Of a stretch of DNA of 64,000 nucleotides, positions 7,338-15,483 are shown piece by piece. The notes below the pieces were generated by a model. It had not been told where the DNA came from. It saw only the letters and a program-made list of their open reading frames with translations, and ran no database searches. The stretch covers positions 1 through 64,000 of the forward strand of contig JBFIML010000002.1 of NCBI GenBank assembly GCA_041611735.1, given 5' to 3'. Positions within the stretch are counted from its first letter, which is position 1. Each line of letters opens with the position of its first letter. Source of the DNA: Myxococcota bacterium. GTDB lineage: Bacteria; Myxococcota_A; UBA9160; PR03. A program made the translations under genes and the position numbers.

Positions 7338-8603
7338 ATGCTGGGTGGCGGAGCCCGTCTGGTGGCATGCGTCCTGGCGCTCTGCGTCGCGGGAGCCGCC
7401 GCGGCGGAACGCACCGTGGTGCTGCTGGTCTTCGATGGCGTGGGGCCCGTCCTCTTCCAGCATCACCCGGCCCCCAGCTTCGCACGGCTGCGCGTGGAGG
7501 GTGCCTTCAGCGAGGCTCTGGAGCCCGTCTTTCCCACCGTTTCGCTCATCAACGGCTTCACGCTCTCCACCGGCTGCTGGCCCGCGCACCATGGCATCGT
7601 CACCAACAAGTTTCTCGATCCGGAGCGCGGCCTCTACGACCACAGCCGGGACGCCGACTGGCTCACGGGCTGCGAGGGACTGCACGAGGCGGCGGAAGGC
7701 CAGGGCGTGCGGGCGGCGGCGCTCGGCTGGTACGGAGGCCGGTCGAGCACCCGCGGCCCGCTGGCGAGCAGCGTCTCGGACGAGCGCAGCTTCGACGAGT
7801 TCCCGGACGACGCCGGACGCGCCGCGCAGGTGGTCGAGCAGCTGCGTCGCACCGACGCGCAGCGGCCCCGCCTCGTGCTGGCCTACTTCCGCGGACCCGA
7901 CCATGCGGAACACGACACGGGGATCGAGTCCGAGGAGACGCGGCGCGCCGTGCAGGCCATGGATGCGGCGCTGGCGCGGGTGATCGAGACGATCGAGGCG
8001 AGCGGCCGCCCGACGACGTTGCTGGTCACCACCGACCACGGCATGCGCGCGGTCTCGCATCTGGTCAACGTGAAGCGCCTGCTCCACTGGCACGGCCTGC
8101 GGGCTACCGCCGTCTCCACCGGAACGACGGCCTTCCTCTACTTCGACGGCCCCGCGGAGGTGGAGCGGGCCTCCGCGGCCCTGGCCGGCTACGACGCCTT
8201 CGAGATCCTCCGCAAGGGAGACTTGCCGGAGTACGCACGCCTGGGAGATGGCGCCCGCGTCCCGGAGCTGATCCTGTCGGCCCGAGCCCCCTACTTCATG
8301 GAGGACACGGACCTCTGGCCGGCCTGGCTGCGCTGGCTCGGGCGCTGGGGGCCGCGACTGGTCTGGGCCCGTCCCTTCCTCGCGGCGACCCACGGCTATC
8401 CGCCGGACGTGGAAGGGATGCACGGCGTCCTGTATGCCTGGGGCGACGGCATCGCCCGCGGGCGCCACCTCGGCCGCGTACGCGCCGTCGATGTGCATCC
8501 GACGGCGGCGGCCCTGCTGGGGATCCGACCGGGACGCCCCATGGACGGGCGCGTCGTGCCGGGTCTGCTGTACGACGAGGCCTCGGCGGACTCCGGCTCC
8601 TAG
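7338..8603 (+). CDS. Secreted alkaline-phosphatase-family nucleotide pyrophosphatase/phosphodiesterase
   Basis: C-terminal part of ORF 5037..8603; signal peptide, VLLVFDG, PVFPTVS, PDHAEH, TTDHGM, ATHGYPP. Confidence 0.87.
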   Translation: MLGGGARLVACVLALCVAGAAAAERTVVLLVFDGVGPVLFQHHPAPSFARLRVEGAFSEALEPVFPTVSLINGFTLSTGCWPAHHGIVTNKFLDPERGLYDHSRDADWLTGCEGLHEAAEGQGVRAAALGWYGGRSSTRGPLASSVSDERSFDEFPDDAGRAAQVVEQLRRTDAQRPRLVLAYFRGPDHAEHDTGIESEETRRAVQAMDAALARVIETIEASGRPTTLLVTTDHGMRAVSHLVNVKRLLHWHGLRATAVSTGTTAFLYFDGPAEVERASAALAGYDAFEILRKGDLPEYARLGDGARVPELILSARAPYFMEDTDLWPAWLRWLGRWGPRLVWARPFLAATHGYPPDVEGMHGVLYAWGDGIARGRHLGRVRAVDVHPTAAALLGIRPGRPMDGRVVPGLLYDEASADSGS

Positions 8604-9295
8604 CCGGCCGGGTTCGAGAGGTCCTCCCGATAGGCGACGATCTCCCGCTGCACCTGGTCCACGCCTTCGAGTCCGTTCCGGTAGGCCCGCGCGCCCTCGC
8701 TCTGTCCGAGCGCCTTGAGCAGCAGGTCCCGGCCGATGGACTGCTTGTCCAGGTCCGACAGACGGTCCAGGGGGCGCACCAGCCAGTAGCCGAGCATGTC
8801 CCCGGTGACCGCCTGGAAGGTGGCGATGCGCGCCGACTCACCCGCCTTGGGGATCGCCTCGGCGACGTTCCGGAACAGCTCCTCGACGGTCTCCTGGTGA
8901 CCGGGACGCGCCCGTACCAGGACCAGCGACGTGATCCGGGCGACCCGCTCGGCGGGCTCCTTCGGGTAGCTCAGCTCGGGACGGTGCAGGCCGAGGCTCC
9001 GCTCGGTCGACACGAGGCACTCGTTGGCTTCCTCCAGGACCTTCTGGCCCCTCTTCTCGCCCAGCACCCGCTCGAAGAGCCCCCGCGCGTCGCCGTGCTT
9101 CTCCAGGTCCGCCCAGTCCTCGTGCTGGGACACGTGGTAGATGCGGGCCAACGGGCCGAACCCGACCTGGTGCGAGACCCAATGCCAGGCCTCCTTCTTC
9201 TTGCGCGCCTCGGCGGCGAGCTCCGTGACGAGCTCCTCGTAGCGGCGGATCCGGTCCGCACGGACGTGATCGGTGAACACGCTGACGAAGGACAT
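8600..9295 (-). CDS. Hypothetical protein, possibly two-repeat NIPSNAP/dimeric alpha-beta barrel
   Basis: Strong codon bias, AAAGGAG RBS, two internally similar halves; fold call is tentative. Confidence 0.6.
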   Translation of the reverse strand: MSFVSVFTDHVRADRIRRYEELVTELAAEARKKKEAWHWVSHQVGFGPLARIYHVSQHEDWADLEKHGDARGLFERVLGEKRGQKVLEEANECLVSTERSLGLHRPELSYPKEPAERVARITSLVLVRARPGHQETVEELFRNVAEAIPKAGESARIATFQAVTGDMLGYWLVRPLDRLSDLDKQSIGRDLLLKALGQSEGARAYRNGLEGVDQVQREIVAYREDLSNPAG

Positions 9296-9519
9296 GAATG
9301 GCTCCTTTCTCGGACAGGAGGGTGAGAAGAGGCATCTCGGCGGAGTCCGGCAGGCGGAGAGAAGGAGCGCACCGGAGGAGAACGACCTGCAGCCGCGCTG
9401 GAGGGTCGCGACGGCCTCCCCTTTCCGCTTACCACGTGGGCGGTGAGCCGATCAATCGATTTCGGGCCGAGCCGCCGTTTTCCTTGGACCCTCGGGGACC
9501 GTCGCGCCGCGGATCCCCG

Positions 9520-10233
9520 CTAGGATCCCGGGGGATCTCCCAGGTGGCTCGCGATCGCCGCCTCCCACTCCTTGGGGCGGAAGAACATCGGGCCGATGCC
9601 GCCCTTGTACGCCACCCGCCCGTCGCGGCCGATCAGGTAGAGCCGTTCCGGCATGGCCGCGTAGGCCCGGGCGACGCCATCGTCCATCTCGTCCACCGCG
9701 GCGGGCATCTCGAGCGCCATCTTCAGCATGCAGGACTGACCGGCTTCGACCCGCTCCGACATGGAGCGATGCTGGCGGAGCAGAACCCCCTCCTGCTCGT
9801 TCTCCCTGACCTGCCAGCCGTCGGTGGGGTGGATCTCCTTGATGTACACCACGTAGAAGTCCACGCGGTCGCGGAAGCGGGCGTGGATGCGATTCAGGGT
9901 CCCAGCCTGGGCCCGGAAGGGCGGTCAGGTATAGCTGCCGAAGACGAGCGCCACCGGCCGCTTCCCGAGATGCCTGGAGAGCGTGAGCTCGGGGCTCCCG
10001 CTACGGCCGGAGCCCGGCAGCCACGGCAGCGAGAAGTCCGGGGCAGGCTCTCCCACCGCCACCGAACTCGTCTCGGCCGCCATGATCTCGGCGATCATCG
10101 CCGGCGCCTTCGGGTGGGAAATCGCCTCGGCCAGGGCCTTCACGGTGAGGCCGGCGAGCCGCCCGGCCGCCTCGTCGCGCTCCAGACCCTCCCGCATGCC
10201 CTCCCACATCTTGTCGAGATCGATCTTGCTCAT
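9520..10233 (-). CDS. Iodothyronine deiodinase-like selenoprotein (237 aa, Sec at codon 103, TGA 9925-9927)
   Basis: ORFs 9925..10233 and 9520..9864 are in frame; read-through gives RPVALVFGSYT-U-PPFR...VYIKEIHPTDGW...AYAAMPERLYLI...YKGGIGP, colinear with deiodinase motifs. Confidence 0.88.
9893..9918 (-). promoter_or_regulatory. Candidate bacterial SECIS hairpin
   Basis: 6 nt after UGA: UUC-C-GGG-CCCA-(GGC)-UGGG-A-CCC-U-GAA forms a bulged stem with a G-containing apical loop. Confidence 0.65.
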
Positions 10234-11036
10234 GGTCTGGCTCCCGCCGTCTTGAGCTCCACCAGCACGACCTCCAGGGGCTCGTCACTCCGGTTCTCGG
10301 GCAGGTGGGTCACGGCATCCGCCCAGGCGACCTCCCCCGCCTTCCCGGTCACGTCGGACTTGGTGCCGTCCGGGAAGGCGAAGCGCCCGTTCTGGTCGGT
10401 GACGTACACGACAACCCCGGCCGGGTGGTCGTGCATCACGGACTTCTCCTTCGGACCGTACCGGATGCGCAACACGCGAACCCGATCGTTCTCGAACTCG
10501 ACCTGGTAGTGCTTCGGATCGACCGAGACGGAGTCCCGGGCCAGGTCGAGCGACGGGCTCGGGGCCGGCGGCGGCTGGTTCTCGCTGGGCGCATCCACCA
10601 CGACCTTCCACGAACCGTCGGCCTGCTTCTTCCACAGGGTCACGTACTTGCCGGGGCGCGTCTGCGGATTCCCCGCTGCGTCGTTCGTGGTGATCTCGTA
10701 GCGGCCGAGCGTGTAGGCGAGGTCGCCACAGGCGGAGACTTCCGCCCGGGAAGCGCTCCAGGAGAGGGCGAACCCCGGCGCCCCGAACAGCTGCGCGATC
10801 GATTTCCGGATCGCTTCCGGGCCCTCGGCGGGGGGCGCCCCGCCCATCAACGTGATGCCCTCCGGCGTGAAGGCCGCGACGAAGGCATCGGCGTCTGGCG
10901 GGGTCGCGGACCACGCGCGGTCCGCTGCGAGCACGACGTTGCGCTCCGCCTCGACGTCCACCTGCGGGCCTGGGGGAGCGCACGCGGCCAGCACTGCGAT
11001 CGCGAGCCCCGGCAACAGGATGTCTCGGATCGTCAT
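10230..11036 (-). CDS. Lipoprotein fusing SnoaL/DUF4440 (NTF2-like) and cupin domains
   Basis: Lipobox LAAC; GDLAYTLGRY...GKYVTLWKKQADGSWKVVVD; Pro-rich linker; FENDRVRVLR..SVMHDHP..VTHLPEN; ATGA overlap with the selenoprotein gene. Confidence 0.82.
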   Translation of the reverse strand: MTIRDILLPGLAIAVLAACAPPGPQVDVEAERNVVLAADRAWSATPPDADAFVAAFTPEGITLMGGAPPAEGPEAIRKSIAQLFGAPGFALSWSASRAEVSACGDLAYTLGRYEITTNDAAGNPQTRPGKYVTLWKKQADGSWKVVVDAPSENQPPPAPSPSLDLARDSVSVDPKHYQVEFENDRVRVLRIRYGPKEKSVMHDHPAGVVVYVTDQNGRFAFPDGTKSDVTGKAGEVAWADAVTHLPENRSDEPLEVVLVELKTAGARP

Positions 11037-11100
11037 GGATTTCCCTCCCTCCCGGACGGTCTCGGCCCGAGCAGCCCGACCCCGGCCTGGGCGCCCCGTT

Positions 11101-11125
11101 CCACGCCGGTCTCGAATCCGGCTCC
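11101..11125. repeat. Degenerate copy of the MITE-like element end
   Basis: CCACGCCGGTCTCGAATCCGGCTCC matches 4362-4386 at 20/25 positions and likewise abuts a stop codon. Confidence 0.45.
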
Positions 11126-12642
11126 TAGCCGCCCAGGTTCACGATCACGTTCTTCACCTGCGTGTAGAGCTCGAGGGCGTGGCGGCCCATCTCACGCCCG
11201 TATCCGCTCTTCTTGTAGCCGCCGAACGGCGCGGCGGCGTCGAAGACGTTGTGGCAGTTGATCCAGACCGTCCCGGCGCGCAGACCTGCGGCGACCCGGT
11301 GGGCCTTGGCCACATCCCGCGTCCACACGCTCGCGGCGAGACCGTACTCCGTGTCGTTGGCCTGGCGCACCACCTCCTCCACGTCGTCGAAGGGTTGGAC
11401 GCAGAGCACCGGCCCGAAGATCTCCTCGCGCACCATCCGCATCTCCGAGCGCACGTCCTGGAAGACGGTCGGCTTCACGAAGTAGCCCTGCCGGAGGTCG
11501 GCGGGGCGCTCCTGGCCGCCGGTCAGCACCCGGGCCCCGTCCTCCACGCCCGAGGCGATGTAGTCACATACCCGCTGGTACTGCTCGCGAGACACGAGGG
11601 GCCCCATCGTGGTCTGCGGATTCATGCCGTCGCCGAGCCGCACACTCTCCGCGATCTTCGTGACCCGCTCCATCAGCTCGTCGCGCACCCGCGGCGCCGC
11701 GAACAGTCGGGAGCCCGCACAGCAGCACTGCCCATGGTTGAAGAAGATCGCGTCGGCCACGCCCTGGGCGGTGGTGTCCAGGTCCGCGTCGTCGAAGACG
11801 ATGGTGGGCGACTTTCCGCCGAGCTCGAGGGAAACGCGCTTCAGGTTGCCGGCCGAGGCCTCGACGATCTTATGGCCGACCTCGGTGCTGCCGGTGAAGG
11901 CCACCTTGTCGATTCCCGGGTGGCGCGCGATGGCCTCGCCCGCCTCACCGAAGCCGGTCACGACGTTGACTACCCCGTCCGGGAAGCCCGCCTCGCCCAC
12001 CAGCCTGGCCAGCAGCAGGGCCGTCAAGGGGGTCTGCTCGGCGGGCTTGAGCACGACGCAGTTGCCGCAGGCCAGTGCCGCGCCGAGCTTCCAGGCCGCC
12101 ATCAGGAGCGGAAAGTTCCACGGGATGATCTGGCCCACCACGCCCACCGGCTCGCGCAACGTGTAGTCGAGGAAGCGGGCGCCCGCCGCGACCGGCACCG
12201 AGATCGGGATCGTCTCACCCTCGATCTTCGTGGCCCAGCCCGCGTAGTAGCGGAGGTGATCCACGGTGAGCGGCACGTCCGCGGCGCGCGCCACCGCCAG
12301 GGGCTTGCCGTTGTCCAGCGTCTCGAGTTGGGCGAACTGCTCGGTGTGCGCCTCGACGAGATCCGCCAGCTTCCAGAGCCGCTTTCCGCGCTCGCTCGGG
12401 GTCGTCCGCCGCCAGGGCCCTTCCTCGAAGGCACGGCGCGCTGCGCGCACGGCCGCATCCACGTCCGTGGCGTCTCCCTTCTGGACGTGCGCGATGACGT
12501 CCTCGCGGGCGGGATTCTCGACGGCGAAGGTCTCGCCGCTCCGGCTCGGCACCCAGCGGCCGCCGATCAGGTGCCGGTGCTCCCCGCGCAGGAATGCGCT
12601 CACCTCGGGGTGGGTCGGGATGGGGGCGGTGGTGGCGCTCAT
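11125..12642 (-). CDS. NAD-dependent aldehyde dehydrogenase
   Basis: [39 protein letters not shown]; start re-called at MSATTAP with GGAGG RBS. Confidence 0.94.
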
Positions 12643-12796
12643 GGGGGACCTCCGATCGTCCTCCAGGAGTATGCCGCCGTTTCGGAGGCTTCGGAAGCTC
12701 GGAGTTGCGACCGGCGGGCGGGGTTCCCGGGGAGTAGAATGACACCGATAGCCCGGTTCGGCGCCGGGCCGAGCGCACCGACGGCCTCGCCCGGGC

Positions 12797-13333
12797 TTCG
12801 TCCGGAAGCTGGCCGACTCCGCGGGCAGCGCTTCGGAGCTGAGCGCCTCGACCCCAGTCCTCTCCCTTCTCGGCACGCATGGCGACGAGCAGGCGTGGAA
12901 CGACCGCCGCCAATCGAAGGGGCACGTGGGCATTCCGTTGATGTCCTCGGCGCTCGTCGGCGGCATCCCGATGATCTCCCGGCTGCTGAAGGAGCTCGGC
13001 GTCCCGATCGAGTGGGTCGACCGGCAGGATGCACGGGTGATCCAGGAGATCCTCGGCACGTCCGAGAGCCTGTTCTGCGTCGAGGAAGCGGACCAGGCGA
13101 CGGACGACCAGGGCCGCAAGATCATCGTCGCCCAGGACGACTTTGTATCGCGCCGCAAGATCCGAAGCGTATTCGGAATCGGCGGCGCATACGCGGGCGG
13201 GGAGATCGTCGTCGTGATCGTCTTCGGCCACGATCGTTTCGCTCGCGAGCAGGCGGAGCAGTTCCTGCCGCTGGTGGGGCTGTTCAAGGCCAGCACGGCC
13301 CCGTTGGTGGCGAGCCGGAGGATCTTCCACTGA
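12797..13333 (+). pseudogene. Probable 5'-truncated hypothetical gene fragment
   Basis: Protein-like sequence ([10 protein letters not shown]...[23 protein letters not shown]) continues upstream of GTG 12926 back towards stop TAG 12749-12751 with no ATG/GTG/TTG start or RBS. Confidence 0.45.
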
Positions 13334-13452
13334 GCCCCCAGGGAGCGCGGAGCCCGTCGCGGCAGCCGCGCCTGTGATGCCCATCATGTTCCGGCGGACC
13401 GGCGGCTCCGATCGGCTGGAGGACGCGCGACGGCGGGAGGGCCGACCCGCGC

Positions 13453-15483
13453 GTGCATCCCGGGGTCGAAGTGGCCGGAAAGCCCGACCTTACGCGCCGC
13501 GCCTTGCTCCTCGCCGCAGGGGCGGGGGCCCTCGCGACCGCCGCCTCGGCGGCGTTGCCGGCCCGCCGCCGCGCCCGCGCCGCCGCCCGGGAGGCCGCGG
13601 CGGAAGCGGCGCCGCAGGGCCGTCACCCCACGCGCCCCGGCCCGGGGCCGCTGGCCGGCCCAGCGACCGCGGCGGCGGCGCCCCCGCCGGCCGAACCACC
13701 GCCCCTTGCCGGGGCGCAGTTGCGCGGGCGTGTGCCGCCCCCGGGGCTGGCATCGGCCGCACCGGCGCCACGCGACGGCTTGCGGGACGTGGCCGGAGCC
13801 CCCGTCTATCGCGAGCGGCGCATCGCGCTGGCTTCGGATTGGGTCCGGACGGATCGGAGGGCTCCGCCCCCGGCCTTCCTCCGCAGGCAGCCGCAGCCCT
13901 TCTCCCCGCCGACCCCGGAGACGGAGGCCGTCGCGCCGCCCCTGGATCGGCCTTCGAGACGCCTCGCGCCGCGGCTCCCAGGAGGGTCGGCGGGAGATGC
14001 GACGGCATCGGGCGGCGAGGCCGGGGGCTCGCCCGCCCCCGCCGTGGCGGCTCCGCCCGGGGTCTCCAGCCTTCCGGCCGGCCCGGACCGGCAGCCCCTG
14101 GTGAGCCTGAGCCCGGAGGTGCGCCACGTCATCGCGCGGCTCACCTATGGCCCGACGCCCGCCCTCGTGGCGGAGGTGGAGGCCATCGGGCCCGCGGCCT
14201 TCGTCCAGCAGCAGCTCGACCCCGCCCGCCTCGACGACGCCGCCCTCGAAGGGGTGCTGGCCCGTTCGCCGGTCCTCGGACGCAGCGCTGCGGAGCTGCG
14301 CGACGGCAACTGGTCGCTCATCAAGCGCGAGCTCCGTCACGCGGTCCTGCTGCGCGCGCTCTGGAGCCGTCGTCAGCTCCACCAGCGCATGGTCGATTTC
14401 TGGAGCGACCACTTCAACGTCTGGATCGGGAAGGGCCTCACGCTTCCCTACCTGGTTCCCTACGTCCGCGACGTGATCCGGCCCCACGCCATGGGTCGCT
14501 TCGTGGATCTGCTGCGGGCCACGGCGCAGAGCCCGGCCATGCTCCACTACCTGGACAACGCCCGAAGCCGCGGCGACAACCCCAACGAGAACTACGGCCG
14601 CGAGCTGCTCGAGCTCCACAGCGTCGGAGTGGACGCAGGCTACACCAACGAGGACGTGCGGAATGCCTCCCTCCTGCTCTCGGGCTGGACGATCGGCGAG
14701 GACCACCGCTTCCGCTTCCGTCCGGAGTGGCACCACGAGGGCCCGTTGCGGGTGATGGACTTCGCGAGCGCCGGGACGGGTGGCCAGGCCGACGGCCTGG
14801 CCCTCCTGGACCACCTCGCCCGACACCCGGCCACGGCCCGCTTCCTCGCCTACAAGCTGTGTCGCCGCTTCGTGCAGGACGATCCCCCCGAGGCGCTGGT
14901 GGAGAGCGCCGCGGACATCTACCTGGCGAACGACACGGCGATCGTTCCCGTGCTGCGCCATCTGTTGGGCAGCGCGACCTTCTGGGAGAGCGCAGGGAAG
15001 AAGCTGCGGCGGCCCTTCGACTACCTGGTCGCGGTCCTGCGCGTGCTGGGAGCGTCGCCGGAGACCGCGGGAGGAAGCGACGCCGCACGCTGGCTCCAGG
15101 ACTGGATGGCGCGGCTCGGCCAGCCGCTCTTCGAATGGCTCGATCCCGACGGCTACCCGGACCGGGCGGCCGCGTGGCTGGGAAGCGAGGCGCTGCGCCA
15201 GCGCTGGGGCTTCGCGGGAACCCTGGCCCATGGCTGGACTCGCGGCGTGGCCGTGGACCTGTCGGGGCTACTGCCCGACCCGCTTCCCGCCACGGCGGGC
15301 GAGCTGGTGGGCGCGGCGGGGGCACGCCTCCATGCCGGTCCCCTCCCCCGCTGGCTGTGGTCCGCCCTGCTGGACTTCCTGGGCGTCCCGGCGGACGCGC
15401 CGCTTACGCCCCGGCTGCTGGAGAGCCACGGGCCGGCGCTGGCGGCCCTGCTCCTGGCCTCGCCCGACTGGCAGCGCTGCTGA
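13453..15483 (+). CDS. DUF1800 family protein with Tat-like signal and long Pro/Ala-rich linker
   Basis: LTRRALL; MVDFWSDHFNV, SPAMLHYLDN, NENYGRELLELHSVG, HPATARFLAYKLCRRFV. Confidence 0.85.
   Translation: MHPGVEVAGKPDLTRRALLLAAGAGALATAASAALPARRRARAAAREAAAEAAPQGRHPTRPGPGPLAGPATAAAAPPPAEPPPLAGAQLRGRVPPPGLASAAPAPRDGLRDVAGAPVYRERRIALASDWVRTDRRAPPPAFLRRQPQPFSPPTPETEAVAPPLDRPSRRLAPRLPGGSAGDATASGGEAGGSPAPAVAAPPGVSSLPAGPDRQPLVSLSPEVRHVIARLTYGPTPALVAEVEAIGPAAFVQQQLDPARLDDAALEGVLARSPVLGRSAAELRDGNWSLIKRELRHAVLLRALWSRRQLHQRMVDFWSDHFNVWIGKGLTLPYLVPYVRDVIRPHAMGRFVDLLRATAQSPAMLHYLDNARSRGDNPNENYGRELLELHSVGVDAGYTNEDVRNASLLLSGWTIGEDHRFRFRPEWHHEGPLRVMDFASAGTGGQADGLALLDHLARHPATARFLAYKLCRRFVQDDPPEALVESAADIYLANDTAIVPVLRHLLGSATFWESAGKKLRRPFDYLVAVLRVLGASPETAGGSDAARWLQDWMARLGQPLFEWLDPDGYPDRAAAWLGSEALRQRWGFAGTLAHGWTRGVAVDLSGLLPDPLPATAGELVGAAGARLHAGPLPRWLWSALLDFLGVPADAPLTPRLLESHGPALAALLLASPDWQRC

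Follow-up and report, generated by a model that had tools for sequence, protein, structure and literature searches.

Deiodinase-like selenoproteins of bacteria, in selenocysteine (Sec) and Cys forms and with a bacterial selenocysteine insertion sequence (SECIS), were first reported by Zhang, Fomenko and Gladyshev in 2005 from the Sargasso Sea (PMC1088965). These authors proposed a redox role, thyroid hormones being unexpected in bacteria (PMC1088965). The family is listed in reviews of 2022 (PMC9312934) and 2026 (PMC13188914), and the later review describes the functions of nearly all such computationally identified selenoproteins as largely unknown. In our literature search, no paper was found in which a bacterial member is assigned a function. 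Few selenoprotein families are common to bacteria and animals; this is one of them, and its substrate is still unassigned after twenty years. Here we describe a further deiodinase-like gene, with an in-frame UGA, in a 64,000-nt stretch of DNA from a Myxococcota bacterium (GenBank assembly GCA_041611735.1, contig JBFIML010000002.1, positions 1 to 64,000), referred to below as the window. A first-pass annotation had singled out this gene as a hidden selenoprotein of a kind predicted before without an assigned function, and the relevant statements of the 2005 paper and the 2026 review agree with that placement (PMC1088965, PMC13188914).

We put at roughly 0.92 the probability that 10233..9520 is one intact gene encoding a genuine Sec-decoded redox enzyme of the deiodinase family, as predicted from sequence comparison and structure modelling. 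Neither the recoding nor the family is new. The gene is a further member of a family known since 2005, the members in papers of 2005 and 2008 may already include close relatives, and the finding adds no new principle.

A single reading frame across the UGA

Two minus-strand open reading frames (ORFs) in the ORF list, 10233..9925 (102 aa) and 9864..9520, share one frame. Translation of 10233..9520 with TGA read as U gives 237 residues, the TGA at 9925-9927 is the sole internal stop, and the frame closes with TAG. The translation holds the blocks FGSYT-U-PPFR, YIKEIHPTDGW, AYAAMPERLYLI and YKGGIGP. The first-pass annotation had claimed this very arrangement, with two short ORFs in frame across one TGA, no other internal stop and the same four blocks (the first given as FGSYT-U-PPF), and each element was recovered. 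It had also anticipated that gene callers would split the frame; ORF calling does split it, and the closest database proteins are C-terminal fragments. The ATG start (10233..10231) overlaps the TGA stop of the upstream gene (ATGA), and a Shine-Dalgarno-like GGGAG at 10245..10241 lies 7 nt 5' of it. Homologues P0003, P0012 and P0045 start at the same position and match its N-terminus, MSKIDL...

Conservation of the UGA and of both halves of the frame

The codon aligned to residue 103 was scored in tblastn alignments over 99 loci. TGA stands in this column in 21 of the 99 locus rows, which comprise the window, two duplicates and 18 other distinct loci. A further 75 rows carry TGC or TGT: 74 real homologues and one unrelated CxxC thioredoxin. 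The remaining rows are one weak spurious match with GCG and two without alignment over the column. Homologues thus have TGA or a Cys codon at the position where the first-pass annotation had asked for one or the other. The TGA loci are named as metagenome-assembled genomes of Myxococcota, Myxococcales or Deltaproteobacteria, and the codon is spread over several families of the order. The Cys loci are mostly from Acidobacteriota and are 33-47% identical; this set is biased towards Cys forms because one scan pattern contained Cys. The search for distant loci used a single protein as query. Within the same family and order, 17 of 61 genomes (that of the window counted) had a match, and exactly one TGA was present in 14 of 19 match rows. 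Across the phylum, PF00837 matched in 30 of 301 sampled genomes, with one TGA in 21 of 34 matches.

A search of 5.8 billion proteins gave 69 matches, 25 of which were aligned with the query. The Sec column is spanned by 16 of these homologues and is filled by Cys in 11, Trp in 4 and Ser in 1. The closest database proteins (P0004, P0006, P0007, P0009 and P0046) are 67-74% identical and 131-212 aa long (four of them 131-139 aa). All five start just 3' of the TGA position, as expected if gene callers had stopped at the TGA. Both halves of the frame are conserved in frame in 14 orthologues (39-70% identity for the N-terminal part, 67-86% for the C-terminal part). Contigs of sequencing run X1, possibly the source of the assembly, cover 9925-9927 without any other letter, and contigs of run X5, from a different study, cover these positions without difference. 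The TGA is therefore not an error, the same codon being present both in related genomes and in contigs of an independent study.

Some further observations concern relatives of the gene. The four metagenomic homologues with Trp at the Sec column (P0017, P0021, P0036 and P0042) read FGS-x-T-W-PPF. Probably a TGA was translated as Trp by a caller using another code, in which case these four would be hidden Sec forms. In runs X6 and X7, most matching pieces are fragments of other organisms that match only at about 9901-9944. Short sediment-metagenome contigs in these runs match only these 44 nt, which hold the active-site codons and the SECIS, and diverge on both sides; a match of this kind across different organisms shows strong nucleotide conservation of 9901-9944. 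One related genome (G035) has, on contig C473, a second, partial and divergently oriented deiodinase-like frame without TGA adjoining a TGA orthologue (L012/L024; 565-1221 (-) and 144-530 (+)), and a further TGA-containing deiodinase-like copy at a contig end (L025).

A constrained hairpin next to the UGA

The apical hairpin downstream of the UGA is 18 nt long, GGGCCCA-GGC-UGGGACCC. The outer pairs of the extended structure start 2 nt after the UGA and its UUC/GAA stem 6 nt after it. A bulged hairpin 6 nt after the UGA had been noticed at first pass; the UUC/GAA stem begins at that distance, and the conserved apical hairpin at 10 nt. For the RNA of 9930 to 9860 the folding energy is -29.6 kcal/mol (z = -2.33), and 1 of 200 shuffles was as good. 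Across 15 orthologues, whose proteins are 54-84% identical, the apical 18 letters hardly change; the exceptions are a GGU loop in one of them and a bulge that is A or U. In the same 15 orthologues, synonymous sites immediately before and after the apical hairpin vary freely. Codons 107-112, which encode the hairpin, have a codon identity of 0.978 versus a gene mean of 0.597. They rank first among 145 six-codon windows, and none of 100,000 random six-column draws reached their value. The hairpin needs the rare Ala codon GCT, which accounts for 30 of the 397 Ala codons in the 15 genes; 14 of these 30 are at the hairpin position.

Conservation does not extend to the lower stem, whose letters change without retention of pairing in L010, L012 and L014-L016. 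In two more distant TGA relatives, L017 (47% identity) and L019 (34%), the corresponding position is occupied by hairpins with other sequences and G-containing loops. A gathering-level Rfam scan of the whole window found no SECIS family, its single match being a cobalamin riboswitch. For comparison, the minimal E. coli fdhF element is reported to have a spacing of 11 nt, close to the 10 nt seen here. The G-containing loop and the position of the hairpin agree with the description of bacterial SECIS elements given in the 2005 report (PMC1088965).

Selenocysteine machinery of the host

The host genome (4.09 Mb in 118 contigs, 95% complete) was searched for the genes of Sec synthesis and insertion. 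It has selA (420.9 bits), selD (327.7 bits) and, among 45 tRNAs, one tRNA-Sec with anticodon TCA (on C24). The selB gene is split over two contig ends, with the GTPase (N-terminal) part at the end of C95 and the C-terminal winged-helix part at the start of C47. The earlier claim that the host makes selenocysteine thus holds for all four components looked for. The selD gene (G000 contig C7:77003-77929 (+)) itself has an in-frame TGA, in AGG-U-ARK (around position 1531 of locus L004), and after it, at +22..+42, a hairpin of 9 pairs with the loop GUC.

A deiodinase-type active site on a soluble protein

The translated protein matches Pfam T4_deiodinase (PF00837) over residues 84-223 with 114.5 bits (cut-off 27, E-value 6e-33) and NCBIfam NF038285, 'deiodinase family protein' (deiodinase_rel), over profile positions 133-341 of 347 (E-value 4.2e-59). 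A marginal match to AhpC/TSA (PF00578; 29.3 bits, cut-off 26) is far weaker than the PF00837 match that it overlaps. The only solved structures matching by sequence are mouse Dio3 (4TR3, E-value 6.6e-24) and Dio2 (9H48, E-value 9.9e-20). The same two are the best Foldseek matches of an AlphaFold model built from a 26-row alignment (predicted local distance difference test score 88.1, predicted template modelling (TM) score 0.87), with target TM-scores of 0.75 and 0.80. They are followed by thioredoxin-like proteins, ResA/DsbE and 1-Cys peroxiredoxins. Both searches bear out the initial description of the product as a deiodinase-like enzyme with a thioredoxin fold.

The Dio2 structure paper names a deiodinase proton relay of Ser, Thr, Tyr, Glu-x-His, a second His and a stacking Trp, together with the clamp residue Arg275 of Dio3 (PMC11592359). 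The equivalents here are identical (S100, T102, Y130, E133, H135, H155, W140 and R197), and U103 is aligned as well. These relay residues are retained in 14 to 17 of 17 Sec-type loci. Cys168 is retained in 16 of the 17 Sec-type loci and in 72 of 74 of the Cys type. The other Sec-type loci (L008-L019, L026 and L028-L031; 17 in total) invariably have F at position 106. The Cys-type acidobacterial relatives have Ala at the position of His155 in 64 of 74 loci.

The usual Kyte-Doolittle threshold for a hydrophobic segment is 1.6. The maximum 19-residue mean here is 1.09, and the protein lacks such a segment; in contrast to the animal enzymes, it is therefore predicted to be soluble. The model shows three soluble helices at residues 6-55, and residues 1-40 align only with the last helix-loop-helix of an EF-hand-bearing relative, P0015. 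Several longer relatives (P0015, P0030, P0032-P0034 and P0038; 335-414 aa) have EF-hand domains fused to the deiodinase-like domain, while P0064 has a fusion with a CMD/AhpD-like domain and P0040 one with TPR (tetratricopeptide) repeats.

Possible catalytic cycle and substrates

On the pattern of established bacterial Sec biology, the UGA at 9927..9925 would be read by SelB with Sec-tRNA(Sec), SelB being recruited by the hairpin 10 nt downstream, within the coding sequence. The Sec103 selenolate would lie at the start of helix 104-108, flanked by S100, T102, Y130, E133, H135, W140, H155 and R197. The conserved residues and the fold suggest that Sec103 would attack an electrophilic atom of a small substrate to give an Se-X intermediate. 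Cys168 would then resolve Se-X to a selenenylsulfide, and a thioredoxin- or glutaredoxin-type reductant would regenerate the enzyme. It is from the conserved relay together with Cys168 that we infer a cycle of the peroxiredoxin/deiodinase type.

For the substrate step, reductive removal of halogen from a halogenated phenolic compound is a tentative proposal, for which the presence of the complete deiodinase-specific apparatus counts. Reduction of another redox substrate is also possible, and reduction of a hydroperoxide seems somewhat unlikely. A more specific version of the first proposal, that the soluble Myxococcota clade acts on natural iodinated or brominated phenolics of marine sediment as a selenium-dependent reductive dehalogenase, must be considered doubtful. 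It is suggested because the clade has retained every part of the catalytic apparatus of the animal enzymes: Sec, the proton relay with His155, the clamp arginine for the substrate and the deiodinase-specific insertion. If true, the clade would represent a bacterial counterpart, and possibly the ancestral activity, of thyroid-hormone deiodination, and the Cys-type acidobacterial relatives, with Ala at the His155 position in most loci, would do something else.

The same selenoprotein could instead be a peroxiredoxin-like hydroperoxide or thiol reductase without dehalogenating activity, in which a Sec103 selenenic acid would be recycled by Cys168 and thioredoxin. We regard this as rather unlikely. 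The motif spacing of peroxiredoxins is P-x-x-x-T-x-x-C, whereas the active site here is S-x-T-U, with Thr directly before Sec. The protein also keeps the deiodinase-specific insertion and H135, W140, H155 and R197, which a plain peroxidase would not obviously need. In favour of a peroxiredoxin-like enzyme are the weak AhpC/TSA match, the thioredoxin-like, ResA/DsbE and 1-Cys peroxiredoxin folds that follow Dio3 and Dio2 among the structural matches, a conserved second Cys as in atypical 2-Cys peroxiredoxins, and the redox proposal of the 2005 authors (PMC1088965).

Several observations weigh against a Sec-decoded deiodinase-family enzyme with the cycle proposed above. In the RNA, covariation is thin: there are few compensatory changes, each from single distant sequences, and a control with the partners slid by -1 scores as high (0.151 versus 0.116). 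An invariant hairpin leaves the close orthologues without information on covariation, and because covariation is weak the SECIS assignment rests on synonymous constraint. In the protein, the NF038285 score of 200.7 bits is below the curated cut-off of 250. Cys168 may be the resolving cysteine, to judge from its conservation across the aligned loci. The gene neighbours differ from locus to locus and give no pointer to the substrate. Finally, a Dictyostelium knockout of a deiodinase homologue is reported to have retained normal differentiation-inducing factor (DIF) dechlorinase activity (PMC3205185). Dehalogenation therefore cannot be assumed for non-animal members.

Alternatives to selenocysteine decoding

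If the UGA mostly terminated translation, read-through would be incidental, and the functional product would be either an N-terminal peptide of 102 residues or a C-terminal protein with its own start. Sec decoding competes with release factor 2 in bacteria, and a GTG-initiated ORF (9864..9520) does exist downstream. This possibility is nevertheless very improbable, as FGSYT-U-PPF and the thioredoxin fold span the UGA and neither piece alone would be expected to fold as a domain. Moreover, residue conservation covers the stretch from the UGA to the GTG at 9864, SECIS codons included, and each Cys homologue is one full-length protein.

A nonsense mutation or an assembly error in a pseudogene would explain why standard ORF calling splits the frame and why many database entries are C-terminal fragments. 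We give this explanation almost no weight, since 18 other loci, spread over several families of the order, have TGA at the same codon, protein-level conservation extends in frame over both halves, the downstream RNA hairpin is nearly invariant, and the contigs of an independent study carry the same TGA. An alternative genetic code, with UGA as a standard amino acid and no selenium, would fit the four metagenomic homologues recorded with W at the Sec column, but is hardly credible given that TGA serves as a normal stop in the window, as at the end of the overlapping upstream gene (10232..10230), that each orthologue has only one internal TGA and that complete Sec machinery with a tRNA-Sec of anticodon TCA is present. 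The pseudogene, sequencing-error, alternative-code and two-protein readings were accordingly rejected.

Genomic context

Coordinates of the gene, its RNA elements and neighbouring features are given in Table 1. The upstream neighbour also has a weak match to Cupin_2 (E-value 4.2e-4, below cut-off). Searched by tblastn against the 17 other loci, the four window neighbours gave a single match, a DUF4440-cupin homologue beside the gene in the closest relative (L008), where it lies on the other side. The upstream neighbour is thus context and not a conserved partner. The listed aldehyde dehydrogenase ORF exceeds the length of its domain, so its true start is probably internal. All-against-all clustering of flanking ORFs found local synteny only among L026, L028 and L030 (bactofilin). 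A Pfam scan of the flanks covered 26 ORFs, from 60 passing a filter on GC content at third codon positions. The matches are to unrelated genes (glutathione S-transferase (GST), DsbA-GFA, epoxide hydrolase, alpha/beta hydrolases, HxlR, luciferase-like monooxygenase, histidine kinase, PhoD and others), and no operon logic was found among the scanned flanking ORFs. A scan of 8500-13500 found no promoter-like sites; its two terminator-like sites lie on the opposite strand and are no more than expected by chance.

Table 1. Features at and around the predicted selenoprotein gene (positions in the window)
Feature	Position	Strand	Details
Deiodinase-like selenoprotein coding sequence (predicted)	9520..10233	minus	237 codons, UGA-Sec = codon 103, TAG stop 9522..9520
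In-frame UGA, predicted to be read as Sec (residue 103, motif FGSYT-U-PPFR)	9925..9927	minus	aligned TGA in 18 other distinct loci
Apical SECIS hairpin (predicted), GGGCCCA-GGC-UGGG(A)CCC	9897..9914	minus	7 pairs, loop GGC, bulged A, 10 nt 3' of UGA
Extended lower stem (CG..UUC / GAA..CG)	9889..9922	minus	minimum free energy structure in this genome
Upstream neighbour, 268 aa, lipoprotein-like N-terminus (...LAAC...), DUF4440/SnoaL-like domain	10230..11036	minus	DUF4440 E-value 9.6e-9
Aldehyde dehydrogenase, upstream, same strand	11125-13296	minus	PF00171, E-value 2.8e-187
231-aa ORF 3' of the selenoprotein gene	8600-9295	minus	no Pfam match at E-value <= 0.001; no counterpart in 17 related loci
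Cobalamin riboswitch aptamer RF00174	712-884	minus	82.7 bits, E-value 7.5e-19; only Rfam gathering-level match in window

Comparison with known systems

The gene is one more that standard callers split or drop. Its nearest database entries cover only C-terminal parts, so that the selenoproteins of these marine Myxococcota are under-counted. Small and soluble, with an active site close to that of the animal enzymes and a clearly defined SECIS, the clade also has a nearby Cys relative, P0003, that is 58% identical; the clade is therefore a convenient candidate for assays of the family.

With the bacterial deiodinase-like selenoproteins described so far, the protein shares PF00837, a catalytic Sec/Cys pair and a SECIS directly 3' of the UGA with a small G-containing apical loop. 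It is set apart by the motif, which the tables of the two reviews describe as UxxC (PMC9312934, PMC13188914) and which here is U-P-P-F, as in animals. The candidate second Cys here is Cys168, on a later helix, and the form described is a soluble one from metagenome-assembled genomes of Myxococcota. Compared with NF038285, the first ~130 profile positions are missing, and it is there that the longer relatives P0015, P0030 and P0032-P0034 have their EF-hand domains. Peroxiredoxins and thiol-disulfide oxidoreductases (PF00578, ResA/DsbE) have the same fold, in which helix 1 carries the nucleophilic Cys or Sec at its N-terminal end, and likely a second Cys for recycling; they differ in the spacing of the active-site motif, and the deiodinase-specific insertion is present here.

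Identity with the catalytic cores of the animal deiodinases is only 29-32%. The membrane anchor of the animal enzymes is absent here, its place being taken by a helical soluble N-terminal region. The bacterial SECIS lies within the coding sequence next to the UGA, whereas the animal element is in the 3' untranslated region. The cysteines of Dio2 and Dio3 do not align with Cys168, and no thyroid hormone is expected in the host. What the protein has in common with Dio1-3 is the fold of the catalytic core, the FGS-x-T-U-PPF active site, the relay of Ser, Thr, Tyr, Glu-x-His, Trp and His with the ERLY arginine, and the insertion between E-x-H and the second His, through which the HMMER alignment runs.

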